The translations under genes and the position numbers were made by a program. Positions 6,301 to 43,634 of a stretch of DNA of 64,000 nt are shown here, one piece after another. The notes beneath the pieces are model-generated. The model was given only the letters and a program-made list of their open reading frames with translations, was not told where the DNA came from and ran no database searches. This DNA is from Bacteroidota bacterium (GTDB taxonomy: Bacteria; Bacteroidota; Bacteroidia; NS11-12g; UBA955), in assembly GCA_030834125.1 (NCBI GenBank), contig JAURFW010000002.1, forward strand, positions 131,817 to 195,816. Reading direction: 5' to 3'. The stretch's first letter is position 1. Each line of letters opens with the position of its first letter.

Positions 6301-7526
6301 ATAATACGTTTTTTAAAGTAAGCACGAATACTAATATATGGATACCAAACCGTAGTTACTAGGTTATATATTGGATACCAGTTAGCACCTTTTCTCATTT
6401 GTAATTTTTTACCCTTTCTGAAATAAATTATCCATTCAGTTATTAACTTTAGGCTAACTAAAGCTGTAGGGTAAATCCAATGGCTTCCAATTATGAAAAA
6501 CAATACCAAAGAAATCCAAAATATTAACTGGGATAATGGATACCACATTAAATGAAACTTAACACCGCTTCTATACATTCTACCAACCCATAAATGTCTC
6601 ATTTTTTGTCTCCAATAATGTTGAAAGTTTTTAGGGCCTTTTGTAGTAGTGAAGCTATTTGTACTCAGGCAAACACTTGTATTTAATCCATTACTTACAG
6701 ACTGTATAAACAAGTCATCGTCGCCAGCTGGAATGTGATGGTGAGAGGAAAAGCCATTTACCGAATCATAAATATCTTTTGTGTACGAAAGATTTCTTCC
6801 GACTCCCATGTAAGGTAAACCTGCCATTGCCATTCCTGTATAGTTTAGTGCAGTAAATAAATTTTCATACTCTACAAGACCTCCAAGAAATCCTTTACCT
6901 CCATCTACAGGGGATATACCAAGAACGATATTTTTTTCCTTGGTTTTTGAATTCATCATTTCTTGAATCCACTGATTACCTACAGGTAAACAATCTGCAT
7001 CTGTAAGTAGTATATTTTTGTATTGGGCTTTTTTAATTCCTAGTGTAAGGGCCAATTTTTTACTACCGTTTTTTATTACTGTTGGATCAAGTAATACATA
7101 TTTAAGTCGGGGTTCTTTTTCTGATTCTCTAACCAAGAAATAGGCAGTTTCATCTCCCGAACAATCATCGACAACAATTACTTCAAATTCAGGGTAATCT
7201 TGCTCTAGCCATAAATGTAAATTATCCTCTAGTAATAGTACTGCATTTTTTGCGCAGATAATTACTGAAACTGGTTCGCTGAATTGGTTGGAATTCTCAG
7301 AATTTATTGGTTTAACTCTGAAATGATAAACGAATGTGTAGTACCAACCCATTAATATACCAAAACCAACCACGGAAATCCCAATGATGTCAATTTGACT
7401 AAAAGGGATATTTTGAAAGTAATTCAATATGTGTTCCACCTTAAACCACAAATCTAATAACAAGCCGTATTTAACTGTAGCAAAGTGTATATGTTGAGGA
7501 TAAATAAATAAATTATTGAGCCTCAT
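6294..7526 (-). CDS. family 2 glycosyltransferase (GT-A fold) with N- and C-terminal transmembrane segments
   Basis: GT2 signature VSVIICAKNA...FEVIVVDDCSGDET followed by a DxD-like LLTDADC, with hydrophobic termini. Confidence 0.75.
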   Translation of the reverse strand: MRLNNLFIYPQHIHFATVKYGLLLDLWFKVEHILNYFQNIPFSQIDIIGISVVGFGILMGWYYTFVYHFRVKPINSENSNQFSEPVSVIICAKNAVLLLEDNLHLWLEQDYPEFEVIVVDDCSGDETAYFLVRESEKEPRLKYVLLDPTVIKNGSKKLALTLGIKKAQYKNILLTDADCLPVGNQWIQEMMNSKTKEKNIVLGISPVDGGKGFLGGLVEYENLFTALNYTGMAMAGLPYMGVGRNLSYTKDIYDSVNGFSSHHHIPAGDDDLFIQSVSNGLNTSVCLSTNSFTTTKGPKNFQHYWRQKMRHLWVGRMYRSGVKFHLMWYPLSQLIFWISLVLFFIIGSHWIYPTALVSLKLITEWIIYFRKGKKLQMRKGANWYPIYNLVTTVWYPYISIRAYFKKRIIW

Positions 7527-7628
7527 TGAGTTCGGAAGTTGAGCAATTTAGAATTTGTAGGAAATAAAATTATACTTTTTCTATAAACAACAATTATATA
7601 TAAATTGCCCAATCAATATTGATTTTTT

Positions 7629-10600: not shown

Positions 10601-10661
10601 TGAGTTAAATATTTATCCAACTTCACGTACTGTATTAACTGGTGTTCAAATTCAATTCTAA
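7629..10661 (+). CDS. SusC/RagA-family TonB-dependent outer-membrane transporter
   Basis: 1010 aa with a signal peptide, an N-terminal carboxypeptidase-regulatory-like domain, a TonB box and plug (VVVGYSKVKRKEITGSIGSV, TAIYGVRAANGVVLITTK) and a C-terminal beta-barrel ending in F. A SusD gene follows immediately. Confidence 0.9.
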   Translation: MFSFSPPRKTYLFINKKTKFILIILCFILSNQVSGQYSIRVVDSRNSSPLNRVLINRLVKNTSGVYTETIGYTDSNGRISINQPKGTQIHFIANNYEEQDYFLGTEKRIMISLESSVDRVDEVVVVGYSKVKRKEITGSIGSVKGADLVKQPVLTGTQALQGKLAGVQITNYGSPGSAPTVRIRGTGSVIGGAEPLYVVDGVITDDIRNISTSDIVSMDVLKDASSTAIYGVRAANGVVLITTKAGKRGSSSLSYDGYFGFKDLSNKVFMAGPNLFTAYSNEAAGTFAIKDEQIIGKTDWMDAITRTGLQQNHSISINGGGEKNTSFLSVNYMKESGILIGNDYERITLRNNNDFFVGDKLRIGNTLNLSRYFSNNKPFSAFTAAYNAAPLYDVIDENGNYGYTDVNNVGNPVAALDYTDDQSFGNRLMGNLYADWEIIKGLKFNTSLGLDAYGNEGRNYQRRYRVSGTQRYDTTTYTVSANNGYRWIWNQLLTYDANINKNQTLKVIAGHTAEQYDGEMFAISRDGVPSKPQYRYINTGASTIQGNILYQRPVSDYGSRESYLAKVSYAYYDKIFVSGSFRRDGSSKFPVQNRWGNFPSVGLAWDLTKESFFPRSKNFNYLKARASWGKVGNDRINPSEFVTLLSTGLVSVFGNGDIQDGSTIAEIKDPNLKWEVTTEYDFGFDFELVEKRWFGTMDWYYKLTSGALFNVPLSAGLGDNNNSMLTNAADISNTGIELTLGYKSLPGDYRSGFNWSSVITATFNRNRIENLGLGRPTNYGSLNNGEFATRVAPGQPIGVFWVYETDGVYQSNEEINNSAHLFGAQPGDFRIKDNNGDGVIDDLDRVYVGSYQPIAYFGWNTKLTYRNWDLNIDIFSNYGNKVFNGKKTVRYGGSYNVEYDVAVNRWTPDNPTNEAPRAYNGVPKPSDYYVESGSFIRLNNLSLGYTMPGRAISKIGAKSLRFYVTAQNLFTWMSYSGYTAELPGAPPQAGIELNIYPTSRTVLTGVQIQF

Positions 10662-10671
10662 GATCAACACA

Positions 10672-12141
10672 ATGAAAAACACAATCAAATCAACAATTAT
10701 ACTTTCTGTATTATCCATTTCAGTTTTTACATTGAATTCTTGTAGAAAAGATTTTTTAGAAGAAGAGCCTAGGGTACAAACGATAGAGGATTATTTTACC
10801 ACCTCAAATCAAGCTGCAAGAGAAATGGTAAATGCTATCTACAACAAGCTATATGATTGGAATTTACATAGTTTCCCATTTATTGGAATGACCGAAATTG
10901 CAGGTGATAATACCTCAAAAGGTTCAGATGCGGGAGATACAGGAGGAGATAAGGATCAAATGGATGGTTATTTTTTCGCTCCAACTTCAATTTCATTCGG
11001 TGATGTTTGGAGCGGCTATTTCGAAGCAATTGCAAGGGCAAATAAAGCCATTAAATATGTTGATGAATTAGATATCCCTCAATCAAATAAAAACCAATAC
11101 ATAGCAGAAGCAAGATTTCTTAGAGGTTATTTCTATTTCTTTTTAGTTAGAAGTTTTGGTGGTGTACCGTTAATTGATAAAGTACCAATTACAGAAGAAG
11201 AAATTGCAAATACATATGTTCGCGCTTCTGAAGATAAAATATATGACCTCATTGAGTCGGATTTTCAATTTGCCACACAGTTGCCAGCAAAACAATTAAT
11301 AGATTTAGGAAGAGCAAGTGGCGACGCTGCTACAGCAATGTTGGCAAAGGTTGCCTTGTACAGAAAAAACTGGGGATTATGTGCAAATTATTGTTCTAAT
11401 CTAATTTCCTCTGGGCAATATAACTTAGTGAAAGATTATTCTCACATTTGGAGAGAAATTGGAGAATTTTCTGAAGAGTCTATATGGGAAGTTAATTGCA
11501 AAGGAACAGATCCACAAAAAGGAATACTCCAGTATTATGTAGTACAAGCACCAAGAGGTGGAGCAAAAGGTTTAGGGTGGGGATTCAATACTCCAACCCA
11601 AGATTTTTATGATGCCTATGAAGCTGGAGATTTGCGCAGAGATGCTTCAATTATTAAGTCAGGGCAAACACTATGGGATGGATGGGAAACCGATGCCGGA
11701 CATTCAAATCCCTTGTATAATTATAAATCTTATGTAAGCAAAATTGCTGAATCATGGGGTCAAGGAGACGTTAATGCAAATAAGAATTTACGTGTGATTC
11801 GTTATGGTGAAATATTATTGATTGCCGCAGAGGCCGCCAATGAATTAGGCGATCAAACTACGGCTTGCAATTACTTAAATCAAATTAGAAGCAGAGCGGG
11901 TCTCGCTGATTTTAATTCAAACGATGCCGATTCTGTTAGAAATGCAATTTGGAAAGAGCGTAGATTTGAACTTGCGTTTGAACATGATCGCGTATTTGAT
12001 TTGCGAAGACAAGGTAGAATAGGTGATGTAATACGAGCAAATAATATTAACTTTATAGACGGTAAACATGAACTTTACCCAATTCCCCAAAGGCAAGTAG
12101 ATTTGAGTGAAGGAAAAATGTTACAAAACCCTGGATATTAA
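10672..12141 (+). CDS. SusD/RagB-family nutrient-binding outer-membrane lipoprotein
   Basis: A lipoprotein signal ending in LNSC sits directly downstream of SusC, and a TPR-like SusD fold is present. The ATG at 10672 (MKNTIKST...) is preferred over the track start at 10642, which overlaps SusC. Confidence 0.88.
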   Translation: MKNTIKSTIILSVLSISVFTLNSCRKDFLEEEPRVQTIEDYFTTSNQAAREMVNAIYNKLYDWNLHSFPFIGMTEIAGDNTSKGSDAGDTGGDKDQMDGYFFAPTSISFGDVWSGYFEAIARANKAIKYVDELDIPQSNKNQYIAEARFLRGYFYFFLVRSFGGVPLIDKVPITEEEIANTYVRASEDKIYDLIESDFQFATQLPAKQLIDLGRASGDAATAMLAKVALYRKNWGLCANYCSNLISSGQYNLVKDYSHIWREIGEFSEESIWEVNCKGTDPQKGILQYYVVQAPRGGAKGLGWGFNTPTQDFYDAYEAGDLRRDASIIKSGQTLWDGWETDAGHSNPLYNYKSYVSKIAESWGQGDVNANKNLRVIRYGEILLIAAEAANELGDQTTACNYLNQIRSRAGLADFNSNDADSVRNAIWKERRFELAFEHDRVFDLRRQGRIGDVIRANNINFIDGKHELYPIPQRQVDLSEGKMLQNPGY

Positions 12142-12163
12142 TAAAAAAACCAAATAAACAAAT

Positions 12164-13057
12164 ATGAAAAAAAACAATTTATTCTCAACATTAAGCCTTG
12201 TAGCGGTTTCTGCATTGGCCTTGAACTTTCAGGCATGTTCTGATGAGCCAACTGATGACCCAGGAACAAACAACAATACAGGGTATACTAGTTCAGATCA
12301 GATTGCTTCTTCTAACTTGGTAGCTAAGTTTTCTTTTGAAAATAATATGGATGATGCCAAAGGAAATATCTCTGATGTATCTATCAAGAACAACATAAGT
12401 TACGGAACCGGTGCGAAAGGCAGATGCTTCATGGGTACAACAGACGGGTATGCTTTATATTCTAATGTTGGCGCTGCTGTTTCTGGAATGCAAAGTACCA
12501 CCGTTGCTACTTGGGTTAAAACATCTAATCACGCTGATGGTGCTGAGTCTTGGTTCCAATTATTGAATGATAGTAATTATTGGGGGAATATGTTCATTTT
12601 GCAAGAAAGTGGTGCAGATGGAAACGATTCAGTAAGGATTAAATTCACTGTTTGTAACTGGGATGCTCCAGTATGGAATGAACAATGGATGGACTTAGGA
12701 GGTGATAATCGTTTAATCTTAGGTAATAATGAGTGGCACCATTTAGTGTGTACCTACGATGCTGTTTCATCCAAAGCAGCATTCTATGTTGATGGCGAGG
12801 AAATAGCAATGCCAGAGAATGTAACAGATCGTTTTGGAGATGATCCTGCTAATGGTGGTGGACCATTGGGAGCATTGAAATTTAATAATGCAACTCGATT
12901 CGTTTTTGGTTGTTTTGATCAGAACCTTCCTGGAAATAGTCCAGCATCTTGGATGAAGCATTTCGATGGTGGTTTGGACGAATTTCGTCTATATGACAAA
13001 GCATTGGCAGCGGCCGATGTAAAATCTCTTTTTGATTTAGAATTAGCTGGTAAATAG
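12164..13057 (+). CDS. PUL-encoded surface lipoprotein with a LamG/concanavalin-A-like domain (candidate surface glycan-binding protein)
   Basis: Lipoprotein signal (LNFQAC), a LamG-type C-terminal motif GGLDEFRLYDKALAAADVKSLF, and a position right after susD. Confidence 0.65.
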   Translation: MKKNNLFSTLSLVAVSALALNFQACSDEPTDDPGTNNNTGYTSSDQIASSNLVAKFSFENNMDDAKGNISDVSIKNNISYGTGAKGRCFMGTTDGYALYSNVGAAVSGMQSTTVATWVKTSNHADGAESWFQLLNDSNYWGNMFILQESGADGNDSVRIKFTVCNWDAPVWNEQWMDLGGDNRLILGNNEWHHLVCTYDAVSSKAAFYVDGEEIAMPENVTDRFGDDPANGGGPLGALKFNNATRFVFGCFDQNLPGNSPASWMKHFDGGLDEFRLYDKALAAADVKSLFDLELAGK

Positions 13058-13058
13058 T

Positions 13059-14762
13059 TTGAAATTCAATAAATTAAAACTTTCAAAAGGACTCTCACTT
13101 TACAGTGGAGTCCTTTTGTTTTTTGTTATTTTTAATATAGGTTGTAAAAAAACTGAAGAACAACCTAAGAAAAATCAAAATCCAAATGATGTTCAATTAA
13201 TCTCAGTAAAATGGGATGAATTTAATGTCTATGGAATAAGAAAAAATGCTTCAGTAAGTCCAACAGTACGCATCCGATTTTCTGAAAAACTGGATACAAC
13301 TATTGCTAAAAGTGCAATTAAGTTAAAATACAACGGTGTAGTATCTGTTGATAGTGATTATTGGTTTGAAAATAGTGATTCAACTATTGCCTTCAAACCT
13401 AAAGAGTATCTAAAATATTATAGTAAATATACATTGCCGATTACTGCCGATGTTAAATCAAAAGATGGCGGTAGTATACAATCTTCAGCGAACATCCTCA
13501 TAAGAACTACATGGGATCCTAGTCAAAAGTTTAATTTGCTAAGTGAGTCTGATCTATTAGATACAGTTCAAAGAAGAACGTTCAGATATTTTTGGGATTT
13601 TGCGCATCCCGTTAGTGGATTGTCTCGTGAGCGCAATACCTCTGGAGATTTAGTTACTTCAGGTGGTTCTGGTTTTGGTATTATGGCAGCTATTGCTGCT
13701 ACCGAAAGAAATTATATATCAAGAAGTGATTTTGTTCAACATATGGATAAAATGACTGATTTTCTATGGAATACAGCAGATGTATTTCATGGAGCATACT
13801 CACACTGGTTGAGTGGTTCATCTGGTGAGGTTAGGCCGTTTTCAACCAATGACGACGGTGCAGATTTAGTGGAAACATCCTATTTGATTATGGGTTTGTT
13901 AACTGCAAAAGAATATTTAGATAAAAACAACCCTGATGAGCTCAATGTTATTAATAGAATTGATTCCATTTGGCATAGGGTAGATTGGAACTGGTTTACC
14001 AAAAATGGTGCTGAAGATCAGTTATACTGGCATTGGAGTCCTAATAAAGGTTGGATAATGAATATGCCAATTCGCGGTTACAATGAATGTCTTATTACTC
14101 ACGTTCTTGCCGCATCTTCTCCCTCACACCCCGTTGATCCAAAAGTATATCATAATGGTTGGGCGAGAAATGGCGGTATTAAAAATGGTAAGTCCTTTTA
14201 TAGTATAACATTACCACTTGGAGAAGACTATGGTGGGCCTCTGTTTTTTGAACAATACACATTTTTAGGATTGGACCCTAGAGGTTTAACTGATAATTAT
14301 GCAAATTACTGGGATCAAGTAGTAAATCACTCTAAGATTAATCATGCATATTGCAAAGCAAATCCCAAAAATCAAGCGGGATACTCAGACTCTTGTTGGG
14401 GATTAACTGCAAGTGATAACCCTTGGGGATATTCAGCGCATTCACCTACAAATGATAGGGGAGTAATAACTCCAACGGCAGCATTATCTTCAATTCCTTA
14501 TACACCAGAAGAATCAAAAAAGGCAGTGAACTTTTTCTATTATATAATGGGTGATTTATTGTTTAAAGAATATGGTTTTGTCGATGCTTTTTGTGTGGGT
14601 GAAGTTTGGGCTGCTAATTCGTTTTTGGCAATTGATCAAGGTCCAATAATTGTAAATATAGAAAACTACAGATCCCAATTATTATGGGAGTTATTTACTA
14701 AAAATACCGATGTAAAAACAGGCTTGAAATCACTTAATTTTCAAGCACCATATCTAAATTAA
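13059..14762 (+). CDS. glucoamylase-like/DUF3131 (alpha/alpha)6-barrel glycoside hydrolase, GH144-like (candidate endo-beta-1,2-glucanase), with an N-terminal Ig-like domain; lipoprotein
   Basis: Conserved block FWDFAHPVSGLSRERNTSGDLVTSGGSGFGIMA...HWLSGSSGEVRPF...DLVETSYL is shared with the paralog at 17973-19409. It carries a lipoprotein signal and is linked to a GH3 gene. Confidence 0.65.
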   Translation: MKFNKLKLSKGLSLYSGVLLFFVIFNIGCKKTEEQPKKNQNPNDVQLISVKWDEFNVYGIRKNASVSPTVRIRFSEKLDTTIAKSAIKLKYNGVVSVDSDYWFENSDSTIAFKPKEYLKYYSKYTLPITADVKSKDGGSIQSSANILIRTTWDPSQKFNLLSESDLLDTVQRRTFRYFWDFAHPVSGLSRERNTSGDLVTSGGSGFGIMAAIAATERNYISRSDFVQHMDKMTDFLWNTADVFHGAYSHWLSGSSGEVRPFSTNDDGADLVETSYLIMGLLTAKEYLDKNNPDELNVINRIDSIWHRVDWNWFTKNGAEDQLYWHWSPNKGWIMNMPIRGYNECLITHVLAASSPSHPVDPKVYHNGWARNGGIKNGKSFYSITLPLGEDYGGPLFFEQYTFLGLDPRGLTDNYANYWDQVVNHSKINHAYCKANPKNQAGYSDSCWGLTASDNPWGYSAHSPTNDRGVITPTAALSSIPYTPEESKKAVNFFYYIMGDLLFKEYGFVDAFCVGEVWAANSFLAIDQGPIIVNIENYRSQLLWELFTKNTDVKTGLKSLNFQAPYLN

Positions 14763-14763
14763 A

Positions 14764-17109
14764 ATGAAAAAACATTTTCTACTTTTAATTCCATTAATAT
14801 TCGGAATTTCTGCTTCTGCACAAATCTTCTTCCCTAATAAGTTAAGGGGTAGAATAGACACATCTGTTTTTGATCACTATTATCGAGATGTTGAGCCTAC
14901 ATGGTTATCCATTATGAAAAATGAGAAACAACAACAATATCAATTTGAATCTCATTTTCTTGATAGTTTAATGAATTTAATGACTTTGGAAGAAAAGATA
15001 GGTCAGCTTAACTTACCCTCAATTGGGTTTGATGTTACGGGGCCCGTATTGTCTGAAGATGTAGAAAGTAAAATTGATAAAGGTCAAGTAGGAGCTGTTT
15101 TTAATACATTTACCCCAATTGCAGTTAGGAAATTACAGGATCGTGCAATTAAAAATACTCGTTTAGGGATTCCATTATTGTTGGGATATGATGTAATTCA
15201 CGGACACAGAACAATATTTCCAATACCTTTAGGGCTTTCTTGTTCATGGAATCCTAACTTAATTCAAAGTACTGCCTCATTGGCTGCAAAAGAAGCTACC
15301 GCAGATGGTTTGAATTGGACTTTCTCACCCATGGTAGATATTACTCGTGACCCTCGTTGGGGTAGAGTTTCTGAAGGCGCCGGCGAAGACCCTTATCTTG
15401 GCGGTATTGTAGCGCAATCTATGGTTGCTGGTTATCAAGGTAGTGACTTGAAAAAACAAGATAAATTAATGGCTTGTGTGAAGCATTTTGCTTTGTATGG
15501 TGCGGCAGAAGCGGGTAGAGATTACAATACAGTGGATATGAGTGGTTTTCGAATGTATAACGAATATTTACCGCCATATAACGCTGCAGTGTACGCGGGT
15601 GTCGAATCAATAATGACATCATTTAATGATATTAATGGAATTCCTGCTACTTGTAATGATGAGCTAATCCAAGAGGTTTTGAGGAATAAATGGAACTTCG
15701 ACGGATTGGTGGTAACTGATTATACAGCAATTAAAGAACTTGTTTATCATGGTGTTGGAGATGAAAAATCGGTAGCTACAAAATCCATTAAAGCCGGTGC
15801 AGAAATGGATATGGTGAGCGAATATTATTTGAATCATTTAAAAGAAATTGCTCGAGAAGATAAATCGTTTGAAACCTATATAAACAATGCCTGCAGAAAT
15901 GTTTTAAAAGCAAAATTGCGTCTGGGTTTATTTGAAGATCCTTTCAGAGGACTTGACGAAAGCAGACAAAGCGAGTTAATGTCTCCTGAACATCTATCAA
16001 TTGCGCAAAAAGCTGCTGAAGAATCCTTTGTCTTACTTAAAAATGATAAAAGCATACTACCATTAAATCATAAACAAAAAATAGCATTTATAGGACCTCA
16101 AATCAAGCGTAAAAGAGACTTGATTGGCAATTGGAGTGGGGCAGGAGATTGGAAAAAAGCTGTAAGTATTTGGGAAGCTGTTTCAGATCAAAAATATATC
16201 TCTTATGCTTTAGGTTGTAATTTATTAGAGGGTAAAAATGTAATTAGTAAGTTAAATGCTCACGACGGTCAAATTCCAGAAATTCAAGCTGCCGATGAAT
16301 TGCTAAAAGAAGCAATAAAAGTAGCTAAGAAAGCTGATGTAATTGTGCTGGCATTAGGCGAGGCCTTCGGTATGAGTGGTGAGGCAGCATCTATGTCTTC
16401 AATTGAATTACCTGAACATCAGATTCGATTAATTAAGGAATTAAGAAAATTAGAAAAGCCAATTGTTTTGATACTAATGAATGGAAGGCCCTTAGTTTTA
16501 ACTGAAGTTGAACCATTATGCGATGCAATTTTAGAATGTTGGTTCCCAGGAACACAAGGAGGTATCGCAATTAAAAATACCCTTTATGGTCAAAATAATC
16601 CAAGTGGTAAATTAACAATGACCTTTCCTCGTAGTCTAGGTCAAGTGCCAATTTATTACAATCACAGAACTACGGGTAGACCCTTAGAAGAAGACCAAAA
16701 GTATACTTCAAAATATTTAGATGTGCCAAATACTCCGCTTTATCCTTTTGGGTATGGTTTGAGTTATTCTTCATTCGATACAGAACTTAAAGGCATTTCT
16801 CAAGAAGGAAATTTCATTCATATTGATGTAGATGTAACTAATACTTCAACTGTTGATGGAAGCGAAATTGTTCAACTCTACTACCGAGATGTTTTATGCA
16901 GCTATACTCGTCCGGTCAAACAATTATGTAGATTCTTGAAAGTGGACTTAAAGCAAGGTGAAAAACGTAATATTCGTTTTGATATATCTACTCAGGAGCT
17001 AGGATTCTTCGATAACCAAGGAAATTGGATTATTGAAAAGGGTGATTTTGAGTTTTTTGTAGGTCCTAATTCTCAGAATTTGGAGAAGGTTGATTTTGTT
17101 TTAAAATAG
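14764..17109 (+). CDS. GH3 beta-glucosidase (BglX-like), periplasmic
   Basis: Signal peptide plus GH3 motifs GIPLLLGYDVIHGHRT, KHFALYGAAEAGRDYN and SGFRMYNEYLPPY, followed by the C-terminal alpha/beta and FnIII-like domains. Confidence 0.9.
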   Translation: MKKHFLLLIPLIFGISASAQIFFPNKLRGRIDTSVFDHYYRDVEPTWLSIMKNEKQQQYQFESHFLDSLMNLMTLEEKIGQLNLPSIGFDVTGPVLSEDVESKIDKGQVGAVFNTFTPIAVRKLQDRAIKNTRLGIPLLLGYDVIHGHRTIFPIPLGLSCSWNPNLIQSTASLAAKEATADGLNWTFSPMVDITRDPRWGRVSEGAGEDPYLGGIVAQSMVAGYQGSDLKKQDKLMACVKHFALYGAAEAGRDYNTVDMSGFRMYNEYLPPYNAAVYAGVESIMTSFNDINGIPATCNDELIQEVLRNKWNFDGLVVTDYTAIKELVYHGVGDEKSVATKSIKAGAEMDMVSEYYLNHLKEIAREDKSFETYINNACRNVLKAKLRLGLFEDPFRGLDESRQSELMSPEHLSIAQKAAEESFVLLKNDKSILPLNHKQKIAFIGPQIKRKRDLIGNWSGAGDWKKAVSIWEAVSDQKYISYALGCNLLEGKNVISKLNAHDGQIPEIQAADELLKEAIKVAKKADVIVLALGEAFGMSGEAASMSSIELPEHQIRLIKELRKLEKPIVLILMNGRPLVLTEVEPLCDAILECWFPGTQGGIAIKNTLYGQNNPSGKLTMTFPRSLGQVPIYYNHRTTGRPLEEDQKYTSKYLDVPNTPLYPFGYGLSYSSFDTELKGISQEGNFIHIDVDVTNTSTVDGSEIVQLYYRDVLCSYTRPVKQLCRFLKVDLKQGEKRNIRFDISTQELGFFDNQGNWIIEKGDFEFFVGPNSQNLEKVDFVLK

Positions 17110-17944
17110 ATTTTTTTGAAGAACTAAATACCCACGGAAGAACTTCTTTAATTGCAATGGTTGAATCCCATGCATTGTGATTGGCTTCAGGGAAAAGTGT
17201 GTATCTGCTAGGAATTCTTTGTGCGAGTAATTGTTTGTGCACATTGAAAGAATGATGATAGTTTACAATATCATCTTTTTGGCCATGAAAGAACCAAAAG
17301 TTTGAGTTCTTCTGGGCAGTTGGATTTATTAATATCCCTCCTCCACAAATAGGAAAAACAGCAGAAAAGGTATTAGGTATTCGTTGAATGAACTCTATTA
17401 TACCCATCCCTCCCATAGATATTCCACCTATGTAAAATCGATTAGTGTCTATCAAATCTTGAGATATTAATTCTGAGATTTTAGCTTTCCATAAATCAAT
17501 CAATAAACCCATTGCTTTAGTTGGCTTTTCCTCAGAGTTAAAAATAAAATTTGGTTTACCATTGCAGTCTTCAGTCCTTATTACATTGCTCCAATAACTG
17601 GTGTTTGGGCATTGAGGGAAAATTAATATCGCAGGCTCGTTATTTTTAACATAATTATAAATCCAACGTCCACCATGAGTAAATTGCTTAATATTATCTT
17701 TGCCGCTTTCACCTCGGCCGTGAAGGAATAATAAAACTGGGAGTTTTTTGTTTGTAGTATTAGTAGGTATGTAGATTCTGTAAGGTAATGAATCCAAGCT
17801 ATTATTGATGAAGGTATTAGCTTGAAAGAAGTCAATATAATTGGTTTCAATATTTTGAGATTGTGTAATGGAAATAGAAACAAAAGTGGCCATTAATAAT
17901 AGATTTTTTAAAAGGTTCATTTTATCTGATATTTTGGTGTACAA
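17066..17944 (-). CDS. secreted alpha/beta-hydrolase esterase (phospholipase/carboxylesterase or PHB-depolymerase-like)
   Basis: Signal peptide, an oxyanion-hole region LLFLHGRGESG, the nucleophile elbow GGISMGG and a C-terminal His region. It overlaps the GH3 3' end convergently by 44 bp. Confidence 0.7.
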   Translation of the reverse strand: MYTKISDKMNLLKNLLLMATFVSISITQSQNIETNYIDFFQANTFINNSLDSLPYRIYIPTNTTNKKLPVLLFLHGRGESGKDNIKQFTHGGRWIYNYVKNNEPAILIFPQCPNTSYWSNVIRTEDCNGKPNFIFNSEEKPTKAMGLLIDLWKAKISELISQDLIDTNRFYIGGISMGGMGIIEFIQRIPNTFSAVFPICGGGILINPTAQKNSNFWFFHGQKDDIVNYHHSFNVHKQLLAQRIPSRYTLFPEANHNAWDSTIAIKEVLPWVFSSSKKSILKQNQPSPNSEN

Positions 17945-17972
17945 TTTATGATTTAACCTTATCTTTTCAAGA

Positions 17973-19409
17973 ATGAATCGAGATCTTCTTAAATATTTTT
18001 CTGGTTTTTTAATTCTAGTACTTACTCAATCCTGCTACACTCAACAAACTAAATTAAACGAGTATTCCACATTCAGTGATGATGTAATTTCTAAACAACT
18101 TCATGAGTTTACTTATGATTCATTAACAACATATCAAAAACAAATCTTCGATTCAGTACAGTATGCCACTTTTCAATATTTTTGGGAAGGTGCGGAGCCC
18201 AATTCAGGAATGGCTCGCGAAAGAATTCATTTAGACGGAAATTACCCAGATAATGATTACAATATTGTAACTACTGGAGGTTCAGGGTTTGGAATTATGG
18301 CAATATTAGTAGGGATAGAAAGAGGATGGGTTACTTATGATAGTGCATTAGAAAGGATGAACACAATAATATCTTTTCTAGAAAATTGTGATCGGTTTCA
18401 TGGCGTTTGGCCTCATTGGCTAAACGGAGAAACTGGGAAAGTAAAGCCATTTGGGAAGAAGGATAATGGTGGAGATTTGGTGGAAAGTGCGTTTTTATTG
18501 CAAGGATTGCTCACTTGGGAAATGTATCTTATTGAAATGAATCATATTTCAACAAGATATCGTCCCTTAGCTGCGAATCTTGTAGATAGGATCCAGAAGC
18601 TGTGGTTAGATGTTGATTTTAAATGGTATACAAATAATCAAAACGTACTTTATTGGCATTGGAGTCCAGATTATCATTGGGATATGAACTTTCCAGTGAA
18701 AGGGTATAATGAATGCTTAATAATTTATATCCTGGGTGCATCCCATCCATCAAATGCAATTGATTTTAATCATTATTATTACGGTTGGTGTGATTCTGGG
18801 AATATACATAGAGTTGGTAAAAATCAAAAACAAGCTTATCACCAATTAAATCTGCGCCACCAAGGTAATCTTCAAAATGGAGGTCCTCTATTTTGGTCGC
18901 ACTATTCCTATTTAGGATTAAACCCCTTCTCAATCAAAGACAATTACATCAATTCAAATTATGGCGTTGAAAGTACAAATCACATACTGAATTGTATAGA
19001 ATGGTGTACTAGAAACCCTATGAATTACAAAGGATATTCGGATAGTAGCTGGGGCTTAACTTCGAGTTATTCAGTAAGGTTTTATTCAGGACATGCTGCA
19101 GATTCTAGCAGAGATATCGGCGTAATTTCACCTACTGCAGCATTGAGCTCATTTCCATATACACCTGAATACTCCTTAAAAGCTATGATGAATTGGTATG
19201 AGAATAAGCCAGAGATTTTTCTAAAGTATGGATTTATTGATGCCTTTTCAGATCAGGAGAACTGGTTTAAACCATGGTATTTAGCCATAGATCAAGGTCC
19301 AATAGTTTGTATGATGGAGAACTTTAGAAGTGGATTATTATGGAAATATTTCATGAAATCGGATGAAGTAAAAAAAGGACTACGAAAGTTGCATTTTGTT
19401 GTAGAATAA
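17973..19409 (+). CDS. second glucoamylase-like/DUF3131, GH144-like glycoside hydrolase paralog; lipoprotein
   Basis: Conserved block FWEGAEPNSGMARERIHL...TTGGSGFGIMA...HWLNGETGKVKPF...DLVESAFL matches the first paralog. The lipoprotein signal ends in LTQSC. Confidence 0.65.
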   Translation: MNRDLLKYFSGFLILVLTQSCYTQQTKLNEYSTFSDDVISKQLHEFTYDSLTTYQKQIFDSVQYATFQYFWEGAEPNSGMARERIHLDGNYPDNDYNIVTTGGSGFGIMAILVGIERGWVTYDSALERMNTIISFLENCDRFHGVWPHWLNGETGKVKPFGKKDNGGDLVESAFLLQGLLTWEMYLIEMNHISTRYRPLAANLVDRIQKLWLDVDFKWYTNNQNVLYWHWSPDYHWDMNFPVKGYNECLIIYILGASHPSNAIDFNHYYYGWCDSGNIHRVGKNQKQAYHQLNLRHQGNLQNGGPLFWSHYSYLGLNPFSIKDNYINSNYGVESTNHILNCIEWCTRNPMNYKGYSDSSWGLTSSYSVRFYSGHAADSSRDIGVISPTAALSSFPYTPEYSLKAMMNWYENKPEIFLKYGFIDAFSDQENWFKPWYLAIDQGPIVCMMENFRSGLLWKYFMKSDEVKKGLRKLHFVVE

Positions 19410-19477
19410 GACAAAAATTATTATTTGTTGTTGAAGTTCAGGTTTAGATTTGAATTATTGTAGAAAATACAATAATA

Positions 19478-20200
19478 TTGCTCAATATCACCATGTCTGA
19501 ATCTAAAAGACCCGATAATCTCAACCAATATTTCCAAGCGGCGGTTTCCGTCGATAATGTTGTTTTTGGTTTCGATAATGAGGTTCTAAAAATTCTTTTG
19601 ATATATCGAGGAGCCGAACCCTATAAAAATTATTGGGCACTCCCAGGAGATTTAATTAACCTAGAATCTGATCTTGATAATTCTGCGGTAAATGTACTCC
19701 AATCATTAACAGGATTAGATGATATTTTCATGGAACAGATTCGCACTTTTGGCCGTGTTGATAGACACCCATTCGGAAGGGTTTACACGGTTGCATATTA
19801 CTCATTAATTAAATCAGAAGATTATAAAGTTTCTGCGCAATCATGGGCGGAAGAAGCAGATTGGTTTCCAATTTCAAAACTTCCTGAGTTACCGTTTGAC
19901 CATAATGAGATTGTTGAATTTGCAAAGCAACAATTGAAGATGCGCATCCGCGTCCAGCCAGTAGGGTTTGAGTTACTACCTAAATATTTTACCTTATCTG
20001 AATTACAAAAATTATACGAGGCAATATTAGAAACAGAATTCGATGTTCGTAATTTTAGAAAGAAAATATTATCTACTGGATTTATATTAGATACAGGATT
20101 AAAACAAACTGGCGTTACCCACAGACCTGCTAAATTATACAAATACAACGCAAAACGCGATTATAGTATTATCAGTTCAGGAATGAATTTTGATTTGTAA
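19478..20200 (+). CDS. NrtR/AraR-family transcriptional regulator (Nudix-like sensor domain plus C-terminal winged helix)
   Basis: The Nudix fold has a degenerate Nudix box (GDLINLESDLDNSAVNVLQSLTGL) lacking the REx2EE catalytic residues. The C-terminal block FTLSELQKLYEAILETEFDVRNFRKKIL...RPAKLYKY is typical of the NrtR wHTH. It is the last gene of the PUL. Confidence 0.7.
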   Translation: MLNITMSESKRPDNLNQYFQAAVSVDNVVFGFDNEVLKILLIYRGAEPYKNYWALPGDLINLESDLDNSAVNVLQSLTGLDDIFMEQIRTFGRVDRHPFGRVYTVAYYSLIKSEDYKVSAQSWAEEADWFPISKLPELPFDHNEIVEFAKQQLKMRIRVQPVGFELLPKYFTLSELQKLYEAILETEFDVRNFRKKILSTGFILDTGLKQTGVTHRPAKLYKYNAKRDYSIISSGMNFDL

Positions 20201-20372: not shown

Positions 20373-20447
<75 letters not shown>

Positions 20448-20466
20448 TTTTTTGCTGTCTTAAGTG

Positions 20467-20540
20467 CGACCCCGATAGGATTCGAACCTATGACCTACTG
20501 CTTAGAAGGCAGTTGCTCTATCCAGCTGAGCTACGAGGTC
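20467..20540 (-). tRNA. tRNA-Arg (anticodon TCT)
   Basis: Hand-folded cloverleaf: acceptor GACCTCG/CGGGGTC, anticodon stem ACTGC/GCAGT around the loop CTTCTAA, T-loop TTCGAAT, discriminator G; 74 nt. Confidence 0.85.
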
Positions 20541-20665
20541 TTGCCCAAAAGGAGTGCAAAAATAACTTATGTTTTGAATATTTACAACAAAATTCAGATA
20601 AAATATTATGGTCATTTAAATCAATTTTATTCGACAAACAGAATAGAATTAATTCGTTTTCTGCG

Positions 20666-20673
20666 TAAGTTTG
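20666..20673 (+). promoter_or_regulatory. -7 element TAAGTTTG upstream of the tandem-AAA gene
   Basis: Exact TAnnTTTG match 8 nt upstream of the ATG at 20682. Confidence 0.5.
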
Positions 20674-20681
20674 AATAACGC

Positions 20682-23303
20682 ATGTTTTCAAACGAATTTT
20701 TTAAATACCGCGATATTAAAACCTATGCCAGCACTGAATGGTTAGCCAATGATACTAAAAAATACAGATCAGTTTTTGATTCTCAAGAACTGACATATGT
20801 GTATTGTGAGATATCCCTGTATAACAAGAAGTTTGATATGGAAGATTGGGATTTATCAATGTATCTCAAGTGCTTTAATGAAGAAAACAATGAATTGTTT
20901 ACAATAGACTACAAACGCAAAATAAAACCTACAGAAAATACAATATTTGTTCGAGAAGGATGGGGTGTGAAAATTCCGGGTAAATATTGGAGCCCGGGAG
21001 CTTATCGTTGGGAAGCATGGTTTGAAGACAAAAAAATAGCTGAGAAAATATTTTACGTTGAAAGTATAGGTTTAGTTCGCCCTGGATTTAATCCATATTT
21101 TAAGATAGAATCGATTAAATTATACGAAGGACCAGATAATAACTTGCCAATTGCTAATCGAAAGTATTACACTGTATTTAACGTGATTAATACAAAATAT
21201 GTATGGGTTGAAATAAAGGCACAAAATTTAACAAGGAGGCATATGGATCTTCCCATAGAACTTGTTATCAATTATAGAACTAGCTCAGGATACTTAAAAG
21301 GCCGAGTAAATAAATTGTATTTCATGAAGCCCAACAGTGATGAGTTTACCGTAAGTGTAGGGTGGGGTTCTGATATATTGGGGACTTGGAATCGAGGCTC
21401 CTATTATCTTGAAATAATATTCATGTCGCAAATGATGGCACATGTGAAATTTGAAATTGGAGATGATTTTGTAGAAGCGCAAGAGCATGATTCATTGCCA
21501 TTTACTCAATATCAATTACCTGAAGGACCAAATTTGCCGGAAGAGAAATCATTATCTCCCGAAATAGTAGAGAAAAAGGGAATTGAGGAGGTCATGAAAG
21601 ATCTCGATAGTTTAATTGGTCTTAATCCAATCAAGCAAAAAATTCGTGAATATGCAGACTATCTTAGATTTGTTGCCCTCCGCAAAGAAAAAGGATTTGC
21701 GGAAACAGATAAAATTAACCTTCATGCGGTTTTCATGGGAAATCCGGGGACTGGTAAAACCACTGTTGCAAGATTATTAGGACAGATATACAAAGAATTA
21801 GGGTTGCTTAAAAAAGGTCACGTCCATGAAGTTGATCGGGGCGACTTAGTCGCAGAATATATTGGACAAACAGCCCCTAAAACCAAAGAAGCCATAAAAC
21901 AAGCAAAAGATGGTGTTTTATTCATCGATGAGGCATATTCATTAGCTAGAAAAGGTGACGATAATAAAGACTTCGGAAAAGAGGCTATTGAGGTCTTATT
22001 AAAAGAATTGACAGATGCTGACGATATTGCTGTTATTGTTGCAGGATATCCCTCAGAAATGGAGGTGTTTTTGGATTCGAACCCAGGTTTGCATAGTCGT
22101 TTTGTTGTTAAATATGATTTCCCAGATTACACTCCACAAGAATTGGTAGAAATTGCTCAATTTGCTGCTGAAAAGAGATCAGTTAGTTTATCCGACCCTG
22201 CATCTGTGGTGCTTAAAAAGTTCTTAACCGATAAATACAGAGATAGAGACCGCTTTTTTGGTAATGCTAGATTAGTGAACTCTATGTTAGATGAGGCCAA
22301 AATTAATCTTGGATTAAGGATAATGAAAACCGCGGAACCTGAAAACCTTTCTTCCGAAGAATTGTCCACTATAGAAAGTCAAGATCTAGAGAAAATATTT
22401 GCAGAGAAAAATAGAATTCTACCCGATATTCCAATTGATGAAGAGTTGCTGAAAGATTCTATGCAAAAACTGAAGGCCATGATTGGACTCGAACAGGTTA
22501 AGCAAGAAATTGAGGAATTGGTAAAGCTCGTTCGATTCTATAAATCACTGGGTAAAGACGTAAGAAAAACCTTTTCTTTACACTCTGTATTCTCAGGAAA
22601 TCCTGGTACAGGTAAAACTACAGTAGCTAGAATTTTAGCTCAGATATATAAAGCACTGGGTATTCTCGAACGGGGACATCTCATAGAATGTGATCGCCAA
22701 AGTTTGGTTGGGGGCTATGTCGGTCAAACAGCCATTAAAACGACCGACATGATTAATAAGTCAATGGGTGGAGTATTATTTATTGATGAGGCTTATTCAT
22801 TAACCGATGGTGGGGGTAATGATTACGGAAGAGAAGCTGTGGAAACTCTTCTGAAGAGGATGGAAGATCATAGAGGTGAATTTATTGTTATAGCCGCAGG
22901 ATATACTCAAAATATGCAACGTTTCATGGAATCAAACCCTGGATTAAAATCTCGCTTCGATAGGTTATTTGTATTCCAAGATTTTAATGCAGATGATCTA
23001 TTTACAATCGCTATGAATCAATTGACAGATCAAAGTATTTTACCAGAACCTAAAGCACAAGAGCATATAATGAAGTATATCGAATTTCTATACCGCTCGC
23101 GTGATAAATATTTCGGTAATGGAAGAACAGTAAGGAAATTTATTGAAGAAGCCATTCGCAACCAGCATTTGCGACTTTCAGAAATGACTGTTGAAGAAAG
23201 AACTGATAAAATGGTGCAAACGTTAAAGTTCAAGGATGTAGAAGAATTTAACACTGATGTAAAACCAAACATTGCATCAGGTGGTATTGGGTTTAAGCTT
23301 TAG
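20682..23303 (+). CDS. multidomain AAA+ ATPase: duplicated N-terminal beta-rich domain of about 125 aa, followed by two tandem CbbX/SpoVK-type AAA+ modules
   Basis: Two Walker A motifs ([12 protein letters not shown] twice), two Walker B motifs (LFIDEAYSL twice) and two arginine-finger-like motifs ([16 protein letters not shown]). The N-terminus shows an internal repeat ([18 protein letters not shown]...GWG... against [18 protein letters not shown]...GWG...). A TAAGTTTG -7 element lies at 20666-20673. Confidence 0.75.
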
Positions 23304-24173
23304 CTAATTTCTGATAAATAAACTCTCTTTTTGAGATTTTCGACTTTCAGAAGATAATATAAAGTCTTGTCTTATTTCATCCCATGTTATACCCTCGAAT
23401 TGTGCAGGTCGTATATTTAATTTTTTACGCGTACAATTTTCCCAAGAACCCCATTTTACACTACCGATAAATTGGTTTCCTGTAATTGTATAGCCACAAT
23501 AATATAAGGTTTCATCTACTTTCACGCAATCTGTAATTAGCATTCCAGGGTCAAATTGACCAACTTTTTTAGCAATATGCTTACCTCCGATATTAGGTAT
23601 TTGATATACATTGCATTCACGATTTTCCCAGTTTTTTGTAAACAGATATATTGAACTATCAGCTATCCAAAATGCTTCACAATCGAAATTATGCATTTTT
23701 CGCCCTTTTACGGAAATGCATTTTTCAATTTTTTCTAATGAATAGTCTTCATAACTAAATTCGATGTTAATCAAAGAATCCTTTTGAATAATATTACCAT
23801 TTATTGGTATTTTAATCACCTTAAGGTCTTGACGTTTACCCTTATTATTTCCAAAGTCTCCAATGTAAATATGGCTTTTCAGTTCATCGGTCTCTATTGC
23901 TTCCCAATCAATGTTTTTAGCACTGATTTTAAATGGTCTCCAAACAGAAGTTCCTGCATAAACACTATCGATATTAGTGCTCCAAATTTCTGAGGGGTTT
24001 CCACTGTCATTTATGCTGAAAAGAGTCGAATTTATAATACATAAACCCGAGGTTTCTTTTGGTATACCATGGCTATTGACTTCTTTTAATTTAGTAGCTA
24101 ATTGTTGTGCATTAATTATGTTAAAGGAGAGAAGTGCTAATGACAATAAGTATAGTTTAATCGATAGTTTCAT
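23304..24173 (-). CDS. secreted hypothetical protein (possibly a YjiK/SdiA-regulated-like beta-propeller)
   Basis: Signal peptide and no recognisable catalytic motif. It lies 1 bp downstream of the PIF1-like helicase gene on the same strand. Confidence 0.5.
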   Translation of the reverse strand: MKLSIKLYLLSLALLSFNIINAQQLATKLKEVNSHGIPKETSGLCIINSTLFSINDSGNPSEIWSTNIDSVYAGTSVWRPFKISAKNIDWEAIETDELKSHIYIGDFGNNKGKRQDLKVIKIPINGNIIQKDSLINIEFSYEDYSLEKIEKCISVKGRKMHNFDCEAFWIADSSIYLFTKNWENRECNVYQIPNIGGKHIAKKVGQFDPGMLITDCVKVDETLYYCGYTITGNQFIGSVKWGSWENCTRKKLNIRPAQFEGITWDEIRQDFILSSESRKSQKESLFIRN

Positions 24174-24174
24174 G

Positions 24175-26403
24175 TTAGTTAAATTTGGAAATACGGAATA
24201 ACTTTAATTGAAAAAAACTGTATTTATTACCTAAATCCCCTTTCAATTCGGACAAAGGCATAGTTACATCCGTAATTGCATTATTCATCTCTTCTAAAGT
24301 GTTGCTATCAATAAAATCATAAAGTGAAAGCTTTTTATCTTGAATGAGAGCAACAATATGGCCCTCAATAGTAGATACAACAAGTCCGCGTTTTTTTGCA
24401 GTTAATTCAATATTATTTCCAGTCTCTTTTAATACTTCAAAGGTTATTGATTTACTGTCGCCTGAATCGTTAACAGATTCTAATATAGCAATTGATGGAC
24501 TACTCGAATCGTTTAAGCAGAGCTTATTATTCAGGAATTGTAATTTTTGAAGTGATCCACGCTTAGAGTTTAGGGCCTCTAATAATTCATTGAAAGCTTT
24601 CTGCCATTTTTTAGTTCTTGCACGTTTTTGATAATTAGCTAGGGCAGTACTGAGTGGAGTTATTGCGATATTGTCAAGCTTACTTAAACAGAAATCAATA
24701 GCTTTCGATCCTCTATCTTCCAGTTTTTTACTTAATTCTTCATTGTCTGGATACTCATTAAATAAAGTATTAATCTCTTTTCTGAATTTAGACATTATAA
24801 GCTCTAATTCATGTACTATCTGAAAAATTGAATCATTTAATCCGCTAATGTCATCAGGAATTTTATCGTTTTTTCGAATTAATCTATTCCACCAACCAGA
24901 AATAAATGATCGCAATTGGTCGAACTCGAATTTTTGTAAGAGTCTTTGGTGTCCGAATTTTCTTTTTTCAATATCTAAAATATCGGGTAATTCTTGGAGT
25001 GGCGCATTCTGCTTTGAATATTCTACAATCCGTTCATCTAAGAATATATTTCTACCAGTAATTCCAGATTTTAAATACATGCCGTCTAATGAAGTTGCTC
25101 TACTCAATGCAACATATACTTGACCTGGGGCAAACGATCTGCCGGCATCAATAATTACTTTGTCTAAGGTTAAACCTTGGCTTTTATGAATAGTGATGGC
25201 CCAAGCTAACTTAAGTGGAAAATGTTTGAAACTTCCAACCTCTTCCTGACTTACTGAATCGGTAACCTCATCGTATTGATATTTTAAATTTTGCCAATCT
25301 ACTCGTTCTACCTCAATGAAATTGCCCTTTTCTGGGTCCTCAACAATTATTTTGTCTTTTGTTAATTCTGAAACAATGCCAATCTTGCCATTATAATATT
25401 TCTTTTCGCCGGAAATATCATTTTTAATAAACATCACCTGCGCACCAAGTTTTAGAGTCAATGATTCTTCCATTGGATATTGACTTTCATAAAAATCACC
25501 TCTTATTTCTGCAAAATATTGAGTGGGCTCAGATCGTAGCTCTTTCAATTTACGCTGATTTATTTCATCGGCGACATTATTATGAGAACACAAGGTTACA
25601 AATCCATCTTCTGTGGGTTCAAATTCTGGTTGAAATCTTTCTTGAAGCAACATGAAATCAGATTCATCTAATTCCGCATTTCGAATACTATTCAATAATC
25701 CGATAAATTCACTGTTGGTTTGGCGATATACCTTATCTAATTTTAACTGTAAAATATTTAATTCATCGTATGCTCGAGAATCAAAGAAAAACTCCGATTT
25801 ATAATATTGAAAGAGACTGTCTTTCTCATGGTTTCTTACTACAGGAGGTAATTGAAATAAATCACCAATTAATAAAACCTGAACTCCCCCAAATGCTTGA
25901 TTATTTCTTCTTGAAAAACGAAGTGATTCATCAATTGCATCAAACAAATCACACCTTACCATACTGATCTCATCTATAATTAATAAATCTAGACGCTTAA
26001 AAATATCCAGTTTTGGCTTGGGATAATGAAAATGTTCTCTTATCATGTTGATATTTTGAGCATTATTGGGATCAACAGGCTCTAATGTAGGCAAGAACAT
26101 TCTTGTGGGTAATCCAAACATAGAATGTATAGTGCTTCCTCCAGCATTAATAGAAGCTACACCGGTAGGCGCTACTACTACACAATTTTTTTCCGTTTGC
26201 TGTAATACTCTCCTTAAAAATGTGGTCTTTCCGGTACCGGCTTCTCCCGTTAGAAAAACATTCCTATTTGTATTTTCTACGATATCAAAAGCTATGTCAG
26301 ATGCAGATGTTTCAACCACTCCTACAAAAGTATTGCTTTTAGTATGTCCTGAATGCACAGTTTTTCCATAATTAAAATCCATACTTTGAACTTTTTTCAA
26401 CAT
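24175..26403 (-). CDS. PIF1/RecD-family SF1B DNA helicase with a C-terminal extension of about 260 aa
   Basis: Walker A LTGEAGTGKTT, motifs VVVAPTGVASINAGGSTIHS and LLIIDEISMV, and C-terminal HKSQGLTLDKVIID...VALSRATSL of the PIF1 2B/UvrD_C_2 type. Confidence 0.8.
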   Translation of the reverse strand: MLKKVQSMDFNYGKTVHSGHTKSNTFVGVVETSASDIAFDIVENTNRNVFLTGEAGTGKTTFLRRVLQQTEKNCVVVAPTGVASINAGGSTIHSMFGLPTRMFLPTLEPVDPNNAQNINMIREHFHYPKPKLDIFKRLDLLIIDEISMVRCDLFDAIDESLRFSRRNNQAFGGVQVLLIGDLFQLPPVVRNHEKDSLFQYYKSEFFFDSRAYDELNILQLKLDKVYRQTNSEFIGLLNSIRNAELDESDFMLLQERFQPEFEPTEDGFVTLCSHNNVADEINQRKLKELRSEPTQYFAEIRGDFYESQYPMEESLTLKLGAQVMFIKNDISGEKKYYNGKIGIVSELTKDKIIVEDPEKGNFIEVERVDWQNLKYQYDEVTDSVSQEEVGSFKHFPLKLAWAITIHKSQGLTLDKVIIDAGRSFAPGQVYVALSRATSLDGMYLKSGITGRNIFLDERIVEYSKQNAPLQELPDILDIEKRKFGHQRLLQKFEFDQLRSFISGWWNRLIRKNDKIPDDISGLNDSIFQIVHELELIMSKFRKEINTLFNEYPDNEELSKKLEDRGSKAIDFCLSKLDNIAITPLSTALANYQKRARTKKWQKAFNELLEALNSKRGSLQKLQFLNNKLCLNDSSSPSIAILESVNDSGDSKSITFEVLKETGNNIELTAKKRGLVVSTIEGHIVALIQDKKLSLYDFIDSNTLEEMNNAITDVTMPLSELKGDLGNKYSFFQLKLFRISKFN

Positions 26404-43622: not shown

Positions 43623-43634
43623 TTTCAATCACTC

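Follow-up and report, generated by a model that had tools for sequence, protein, structure and literature searches.

The subject of this report is a gene for an AAA+ protein of 873 amino acids (aa), located at positions 20682..23303 on the plus strand of a 64,000-nucleotide stretch of contig JAURFW010000002.1, from the Bacteroidota bacterium assembly GCA_030834125.1 (the whole stretch is hereafter called the window). The protein encoded by this open reading frame (ORF) consists of two immunoglobulin-like (Ig-like) N-terminal domains (N1 and N2), a linker, two AAA+ modules (AAA1 and AAA2) and a C-terminal tail, and we consider it probable that it works in the cytoplasm as a type II (double-ring) unfoldase which is specific for its client and belongs to the SpoVK/CbbX/EccA clade of AAA+ proteins. 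An architecture in which tandem Ig-like domains precede two CbbX-type rings and a tail with an Ile-Gly-Phe (IGF) motif appears to be undescribed within this known AAA+ clade, and we found no description of this protein family or architecture in the literature. The conserved IGF tail, as well as the mobility of the N-terminal pair among other architectures, are points that go beyond the original prediction made for this gene from the letters of the window.

The gene starts with an ATG, which is the first possible start after the upstream stop codon, and orthologs align from residues 1-7. The protein is soluble, with neither a transmembrane segment nor a signal peptide (the maximum Kyte-Doolittle mean over 19 residues is 1.09), and since no hydrophobic segment is present its location is taken to be cytoplasmic. 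In the 873-aa product Pfam recognises two AAA domains (PF00004) and two AAA_lid_6 domains (PF17866, E 3e-29), in agreement with the two complete tandem AAA+ modules that had been proposed, and with the motifs where they had been placed.

Two tandem AAA+ modules of the SpoVK/CbbX/EccA clade

AAA1 (residues 304-575; 21591..22406, plus strand) and AAA2 (residues 587-853; 22440..23240, plus strand) each include an AAA_lid_6 lid. AAA1 is 44% identical to Rhodobacter sphaeroides CbbX over 275 aa, while AAA2 is 39% identical to CbbX and 41% to AAA1; a BLASTP comparison of residues 291-580 with residues 581-873 likewise gives 41% identity (E 2e-68). AAA1 is thus about equally close to CbbX and to AAA2, and consequently the internal duplication of the AAA module must be old. 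The Walker A motif GNPGTGKT begins at residue 353 in AAA1 (K359) and at 639 in AAA2 (K645), Walker B (LFIDEAY) at 413 (D416-E417) and 699 (D702-E703), and the NPGL(H/K)SRF segment at 467 (N467...R473) and 752 (N752...R758). Sensor-1 reads AGY at residues 454-456 and 739-741, sensor-2 reads FGN(A/G)R from 526 (R530) and 811 (R815), and the pore loops are YIG at 393 and YVG at 679.

Conservation of these positions was counted in 47 diverse family members, reaching down to 38% identity, and all residue counts given for the AAA modules and the tail refer to this set. In both modules the Walker A Lys, the Walker B Asp-Glu, the Asn of NPG, R473/R758, the sensor-1 Gly-Tyr and the sensor-2 Arg are invariant or nearly so: the sensor-1 Gly is present in 47/47 members in both modules and the Tyr in 46/47 and 47/47, and no variation at all is seen in N467 and N752, in the two sensor-2 Arg residues or in the arginine fingers R473 and R758, which correspond to R194 of CbbX. 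The pore loops are similarly maintained, with Tyr or Phe at position 1 in 46/47 (AAA1) and 45/47 (AAA2), and Gly at position 3 in 46/47 and 47/47. Because the catalytic residues and the aromatic-hydrophobic-Gly pore loops are conserved in both modules, both rings look active.

Among NCBIfam models the best match of each module is SpoVK (TIGR02881, cut-off 423 bits), which gives 280 bits for AAA1 and 270 for AAA2; the 539 bits of the whole protein are simply the sum of the two modules. CbbX (TIGR02880) follows with 258 and 211 bits, below its equivalog cut-off of 459, and then EccA (TIGR03922) with 226 and 214 bits (together 429 bits, where the cut-off is 467), where the AAA part alone matches. 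The closest structures in the PDB are CbbX (3SYK/3ZUH, E 1e-60) and EccA1 (9LUR). The higher-order clade that unites SpoVK, CbbX and EccA is characterised by a sensor-1 GY, an NPG Asn together with a first arginine finger, and a sensor-2 arginine (PMC11513918). As judged from its GY, its sensor-2 Arg and its AAA_lid_6 lid, the present protein is assigned to this clade, a placement that is based on hidden Markov model scores and pairwise identities and that upholds the affiliation originally predicted.

Comparison with the named members of the clade brings out what is distinctive about the family. CbbX, the red-type Rubisco activase (PDB 3SYK/3SYL/3ZUH), can be aligned with both modules from end to end through the AAA+ core and lid, and shares with them the Tyr-Ile-Gly pore loop (in AAA1), NPG..SR, the sensor-1 GY, the sensor-2 Arg and AAA_lid_6; however, it has a single module and a short helical extension, whereas the family has two modules, a 260-aa double Ig-like N-terminus and the IGF tail. 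CbbX moreover works with Rubisco, whereas the window comes from a heterotrophic member of the Bacteroidota and no rbcLS gene was found among the window ORFs scanned. SpoVK of Bacillus subtilis, which activates MurG, is another member of the clade and likewise has an N-terminal domain for recruitment (PMC11513918), and in one subclade of the present family the gene lies in an operon with a glycosyltransferase; SpoVK nevertheless has a single module and an N-terminal domain of 40 aa, and is restricted to sporulating Bacillota. EccA, also of this clade, matches the family modules with its C-terminal AAA+ module, but carries a tetratricopeptide-repeat/beta-helix N-domain and belongs to the ESX type VII loci of Actinobacteria, whereas the N-terminus in the window is a beta-sandwich and there are no ESX genes nearby.

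Members of the clade are specialised chaperones whose substrates are recruited by variable N-terminal domains (PMC11513918), and CbbX, for example, draws the C-terminus of RbcL into its pore with its Tyr-Ile-Gly loop (PMC5385338). The suggestion, made in the original prediction, of a remodelling chaperone for a specific client is therefore reasonable, as it agrees with the published picture of these proteins (PMC11513918). A different kind of unfoldase could also be envisaged, namely a general stress disaggregase or quality-control machine resembling ClpB or ClpG that does not serve a single client, for which the type II double-ring architecture, the apparent activity of both rings and the broad, core distribution of the gene might be invoked. 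However, the protein lies outside the Hsp100 clade, since the ClpA and ClpB models reach 26-52 bits against cut-offs of about 1000 (for example ClpA 52 bits versus 993 and ClpB 32 bits versus 1232), it has no middle domain, its relatives within the clade serve a narrow range of clients (PMC11513918), and N1-N2 have strongly conserved surfaces rich in aromatic residues, which would suggest a single, defined ligand. We consequently regard a general disaggregase as very improbable.

A mobile pair of Ig-like domains at the N-terminus

N1 (residues 7-127; 20700..21062, plus strand) and N2 (residues 140-260; 21099..21461, plus strand) are predicted to be Ig-like beta-sandwiches. An AlphaFold2 model of residues 1-290 has a mean predicted local distance difference test score (pLDDT) of 88.9 and a predicted template modelling score (pTM) of 0.82, and consists of two eight-stranded sandwiches that span these residues, with a pLDDT of about 90-97 in N1. 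The duplication that had been proposed for this region is real: BLASTP aligns residues 1-140 with residues 141-290 over 120 aa at 25% identity (E 1.6e-7), and comparison of an N1 profile with an N2 profile by hhalign gives a probability of 98.4% and an E of 7e-15 over 123 columns (these profiles, like the AlphaFold2 alignment, were built from 27 homologs). The positions common to both domains, KY(R/Y)xVF, Y(V/I)(Y/W)xE, N, GWG, W, G.Y..E and F, are those that the original prediction had listed. In the family alignment R91-E-G-W-G95, W103, G106, Y108 and W110 of N1 are invariant and G227-W-G-S230, W236 and Y241 of N2 are conserved, and the mean column conservation of the N-domains (0.56-0.59) is not that of a hypervariable region.

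This region does not correspond to any known, characterised domain, so that this half of the refutation test set in the original prediction does not go against it. Residues 1-290 have no Pfam or NCBIfam match, the N1-N2 sequence profile has no match in the PDB, and Foldseek returns generic tandem sandwiches (RbmA, complement C3, VPS26) at template modelling scores below 0.3, so that the fold can be described as Ig-like but says nothing about the ligand. DUF6941 (PF22091) appears in 6 of the 27 N-terminal homologs, with a best E of no better than 0.037, and does not match the N-terminus in the window. Arrays of repeats related to N1-N2 do score above the Pfam cut-offs, P0240 matching DUF3859 (PF12975) with 48.9 bits (cut-off 24) and DUF6941 with 40.9 bits (cut-off 27); a relationship of N1-N2 to these two families is possible, and would be a distant one.

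A search of 1.84 billion cluster representatives with the N1-N2 profile retrieved 1016 proteins, 432 of them at E <= 1e-10, and the architectures among them indicate that the pair is a mobile module which no Pfam model covers directly. Besides the canonical form, single-AAA versions of about 570-640 aa exist (P0160, P0208, P0222), as do longer versions of 1141-1150 aa (P0150, P0238, P0242) with about 260-285 extra residues before N1-N2, which in P0238 match DUF7477, and arrays of three to six N1-N2-type sandwiches. Elsewhere the pair is fused to a caspase (Peptidase_C14) domain (P0237, at 6001-8307 of locus L085; P0261; P0271; P0293), to the effector-associated domain EAD11 (P0162, at 6001-7938 of locus L086), to ankyrin repeats (P0232) or to a PQQ-type propeller (P0224). 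The caspase and EAD11 fusions of L085 and L086 are solitary genes in Bacteroidota-like contexts, and the presence of N1-N2 on caspases is compatible with a role in targeting proteolysis.

Apparent stand-alone N1-N2 proteins were rejected as a separate class, since most of them are pieces of full-length genes that frameshifts have broken up in assemblies from long reads or of low coverage. A true separate N1-N2 paralog of 292 aa, with a short C-terminal tail of its own, does lie just upstream of the full-length gene in two loci (L001, 8001-8879; L024, about 4626-5418), and is 64% identical to the N-terminus of the neighbouring full-length ortholog. It looks lineage-specific and could serve as a competitor or adaptor.

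The C-terminal tail and the question of a peptidase partner

The protein ends in a disordered tail (residues 854-873; 23241..23300, plus strand; pLDDT <50 at 865-873) that reads ...SGGIGFKL, and in which I869-G870-F871 (23286-23294, plus strand) is near-invariant across the family. The motif [I/L]-G-F typically lies 0 to about 10 residues from the C-terminus, after a variable stretch rich in Gly, Pro and Ser, with I or L in 44/47 members, G in 46/47 and F in 45/47. Mean conservation reaches 0.84 in GIGF but is 0.48 in the part of the tail before it and 0.35 in the final two residues. Counts over related loci, here and below, refer to the best 80 loci among the matches listed, or to sets of 63 and 69 related loci. 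All close orthologs (120/120) and all orthologs from these loci (69/69) have [ILV]GF among their last 15 residues, compared with a background of 14/630 (2.2%) among the other ORFs of the same loci. The motif is kept in most of the divergent representatives, with an occasional AGF, AGL or LGY (AGF, for example, in P0150), and the single-AAA variant P0160 retains it as QIGFRIGG.

A tripeptide of the form (L/I/V)-G-(F/L) docks ClpX, ClpA and ClpC into the hydrophobic (H) pockets of ClpP (PMC8745299). I869-G-F871 fits this pattern and, as in the Clp ATPases that partner ClpP, lies in a flexible hydrophobic element; the family further resembles these ATPases in having an N-domain and stacked AAA rings. 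In Clp ATPases the tripeptide lies in an internal loop, which in ClpX reads ...GSGIGFGA... and which the tail end in the window resembles. ClpA, ClpC and ClpX nevertheless belong to the Hsp100 and ClpX lineages, whereas the present family is of the classical, FtsH-sister type and its docking on ClpP is hypothetical. A C-terminal docking peptide at the exit face of a classical-type AAA+ ring is familiar from the proteasomal ATPases (PAN/Rpt/Mpa) and HslU, which dock by C-terminal tails, although the proteasomal ATPases use an Hb-Y-X motif in place of IGF-x(0-10). The SpoVK/CbbX/EccA clade is itself sister to FtsH, whose protease domain comes after the AAA lid (PMC11513918), and the tail of the present protein should therefore also emerge on the exit face. 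From these resemblances we put forward, tentatively, the hypothesis that the tail docks on ClpP.

In the mechanism that we infer, which involves hexamer formation, threading, capture of a client by N1-N2 and a possible partner of the tail, the two Ig-like domains would be held on a flexible linker above the entry face, where they would capture a client or ligand. Six subunits would assemble into stacked AAA1 and AAA2 rings, both hydrolysing ATP, and the aromatic-hydrophobic-Gly pore loops of both rings would pull a segment of the client through the axial channel, much as CbbX does with the RbcL tail. On the exit face, where it would emerge from the AAA2 lid, the tail would offer [I/L]-G-F to a hydrophobic pocket of a partner, for which ClpP is the leading candidate; with ClpP, the protein would constitute a protease arm of the ClpA/ClpC kind drawn from another AAA+ clade. 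The linker in question (residues 261-303; 21462..21590, plus strand) is acidic, Pro-rich, predicted to be disordered (pLDDT <50 at 276-297) and poorly conserved (mean column conservation 0.34), and the AlphaFold model of the full-length monomer contains three disordered stretches, namely the linker between N-domains and AAA modules at 276-297, the hinge between the AAA modules at 578-580 and the last nine residues (865-873). In its most specific form, as a ClpP-docking unfoldase so far unrecognised in the SpoVK/CbbX/EccA clade, with a C-terminal IGF tail and a client chosen by the tandem Ig-like 'GWG' module, this scheme is possible but doubtful.

Several points weigh against the scheme, or against parts of it. 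While the domains of the full-length model are confident singly (pLDDT 86), its pTM is 0.41, and their predicted arrangement is not established. The position of the clade's first arginine finger, the fourth residue after the NPG Asn, is Lys or His rather than Arg in most members (Lys in 34/47 for AAA1 and 31/47 for AAA2, Arg in 7-8/47, and His in AAA1 of the window). By analogy with the Clp ATPases the tripeptide would be expected in an internal loop, and in the family it is C-terminal; a three-residue motif could also bind some other pocket, even one in the same protein. No clpP gene was found in the window or in 86 related loci, in a search for which the query was an approximate E. coli ClpP sequence, and clpP need not be linked. 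We found no connection between CbbX-type ATPases and ClpP in the literature, a survey of the clade reports no association with peptidases (PMC11513918), and its characterised members (CbbX, SpoVK and EccA) are all non-proteolytic remodellers (PMC11513918, PMC5385338).

The principal rival explanation builds on these last observations, and proposes a non-proteolytic remodeller that, like CbbX, SpoVK or EccA, pulls briefly on one dedicated client, for example an enzyme of envelope biosynthesis, and thereby activates or releases it; the IGF tail would then serve ring assembly, auto-inhibition (for instance through contact with N1-N2 or with the adjacent subunit) or the binding of an adaptor. Besides the uniform behaviour of the characterised members, the lack of any known peptidase link and the absence of clpP linkage, this explanation can draw on a subclade, accounting for 16/69 loci, in which genes for a membrane GT2 glycosyltransferase and for rsmG (gidB) lie directly downstream of the AAA gene (e.g. 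at 12369-14122 of L001), with stop and start codons overlapping or nearly abutting, an arrangement that recalls the action of SpoVK on the glycosyltransferase MurG. However, this link is confined to the one subclade: the GT2/rsmG pair of the window lies at 5674-7526 on the minus strand, 13 kb away and opposite in orientation, with a SusC/D locus in between. A remodeller of this kind would also leave unexplained why a ClpP-type tripeptide should persist in a disordered tail across members of 38-45% identity, and a stack of two active rings, both with intact pore loops, would fit processive unfolding better than a short pull. On balance a brief, non-proteolytic pull on a single client seems to us unlikely, while deserving to be taken seriously.

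Genomic setting and distribution

In a large group of Bacteroidota the gene for the double-ring protein is part of the core genome and has been inherited vertically. A full-length search retrieved >120 orthologs of 871-912 aa and 64-93% identity, all from Bacteroidota metagenome bins and named 'AAA family ATPase' or, at most, 'SpoVK/Ycf46/Vps4 family AAA+'. With the N-terminal profile, and one genome per species, at least 588 stretches (of 600 listed) were confirmed; among the matches listed all homologs come from Bacteroidota, the more distant members from Saprospiraceae and Cytophagales bins. The N1-N2-AAA-AAA protein is present at full length (866-899 aa) in about 70 of the 80 related loci, wherever the contig allows, and is single-copy, constant in length and 56-75% identical across species. 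The remainder of the window is core chromosome, with genes for MsrA, PEPCK, AlaRS, a SusC/D glucan locus, XseA, RNase R, SerRS, ribosomal protein S1 and others.

Immediately upstream of the gene lie tRNA-Pro(TGG) (20373-20447, minus strand) and tRNA-Arg(TCT) (20466-20540, minus strand), both oriented divergently to the AAA gene, with 142 bp between the pair and the start codon. A minus-strand tRNA cluster (Pro-TGG/Ser-GCT/Arg-TCT) is found <=2.5 kb upstream in 54/63 loci, and <=400 bp upstream in 38/63; it is the one widely conserved neighbour of the family, and the adjacency is ancestral rather than the edge of an island. Such deep synteny is unusual, given that every other neighbour of the AAA gene varies, and control by growth rate shared between the tRNA and AAA genes is possible. 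An ORF of 82 aa (20420-20668) was rejected as a gene, since it is an antisense read-through over the two minus-strand tRNA genes.

Clustering of the ORFs from the 80 related loci revealed no universal protein partner of the AAA gene, which bears on a further proposal, raised in the original prediction, that the protein and the Pif1/RecD-like helicase next to it might both belong to a module for stress or defence; as a variant, the protein might act alone as a sensor of conflict, with N1-N2 detecting an invader. N1-N2 does occur with caspase and EAD11 domains, which are of types typical of conflict systems (PMC7159879). PADLOC gives weak IetA-like matches for the protein, with 63 bits over part of the model, although the similarity to defence libraries is of a generic AAA kind. 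tRNA genes, moreover, are frequent integration sites of genomic islands, and the AAA gene lies beside two of them. However, the helicase adjoins the AAA gene in just 3/80 loci, the tRNA adjacency is ancestral (54/63 loci, as above), and the family is single-copy and of constant length with a conserved rather than hypervariable N-domain. The flanking genes are of housekeeping type, the N-terminal region has no match in phage or plasmid collections, the score for the NCBIfam model IteA (NF042959) is 56 bits, far from the cut-off of 510, and among the neighbours PADLOC finds no match for an IetS-type partner protease. The idea of a module thus fails on both neighbourhood and core context and is essentially excluded, and any role in anti-phage or stress defence, whether with the helicase or alone, is highly improbable.

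On the minus strand directly downstream of the AAA gene (23304-26403), the window contains an ORF of 289 aa without a family match, followed by the 742-aa Pif1/RecD-like helicase of superfamily 1, which has a C-terminal HTH_40 domain and PADLOC matches to the candidates PDC-S68 and PDC-M16A (E 2e-21). The 289-aa ORF is found near the AAA gene in 5/80 loci, and its relatives begin with a segment resembling a signal peptide. On the other side, a polysaccharide-utilisation locus (7629-20200) comprises a SusC-like protein (7629-10661), a SusD-like protein (10642-12141), a concanavalin-like protein, two 'putative glucoamylase' (PF10091) proteins and a GH3 enzyme, and ends with an NrtR-type Nudix/winged-helix regulator (19478-20200). 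Further away, three ORFs have no Pfam match at E <= 1e-5 (52062-54890, minus strand, 942 aa; 42189-43628, minus strand, 479 aa; 45944-46765, plus strand, 273 aa), and a 438-aa multihaem cytochrome c (60894-62210, plus strand), with matches to class III and MtrC-like domains, lies amid housekeeping genes.

Several hundred species of Bacteroidota, with genomes of Chitinophagales, Saprospiraceae and Cytophagales type, carry the family, which extends a clade known for single-ring, single-client chaperones by a double-ring form that bears an uncurated substrate-binding module. The recurrence of N1-N2 on caspases and on an effector-associated domain additionally offers a handle on what such bacterial caspases recognise. 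If docking on ClpP proves true, the family would be the first in its clade to be coupled to a peptidase, and the current description of that clade as purely non-proteolytic would need revising. It would likewise represent a third route to ClpP in Bacteroidota, and a new pathway of regulated proteolysis in an ecologically dominant phylum.

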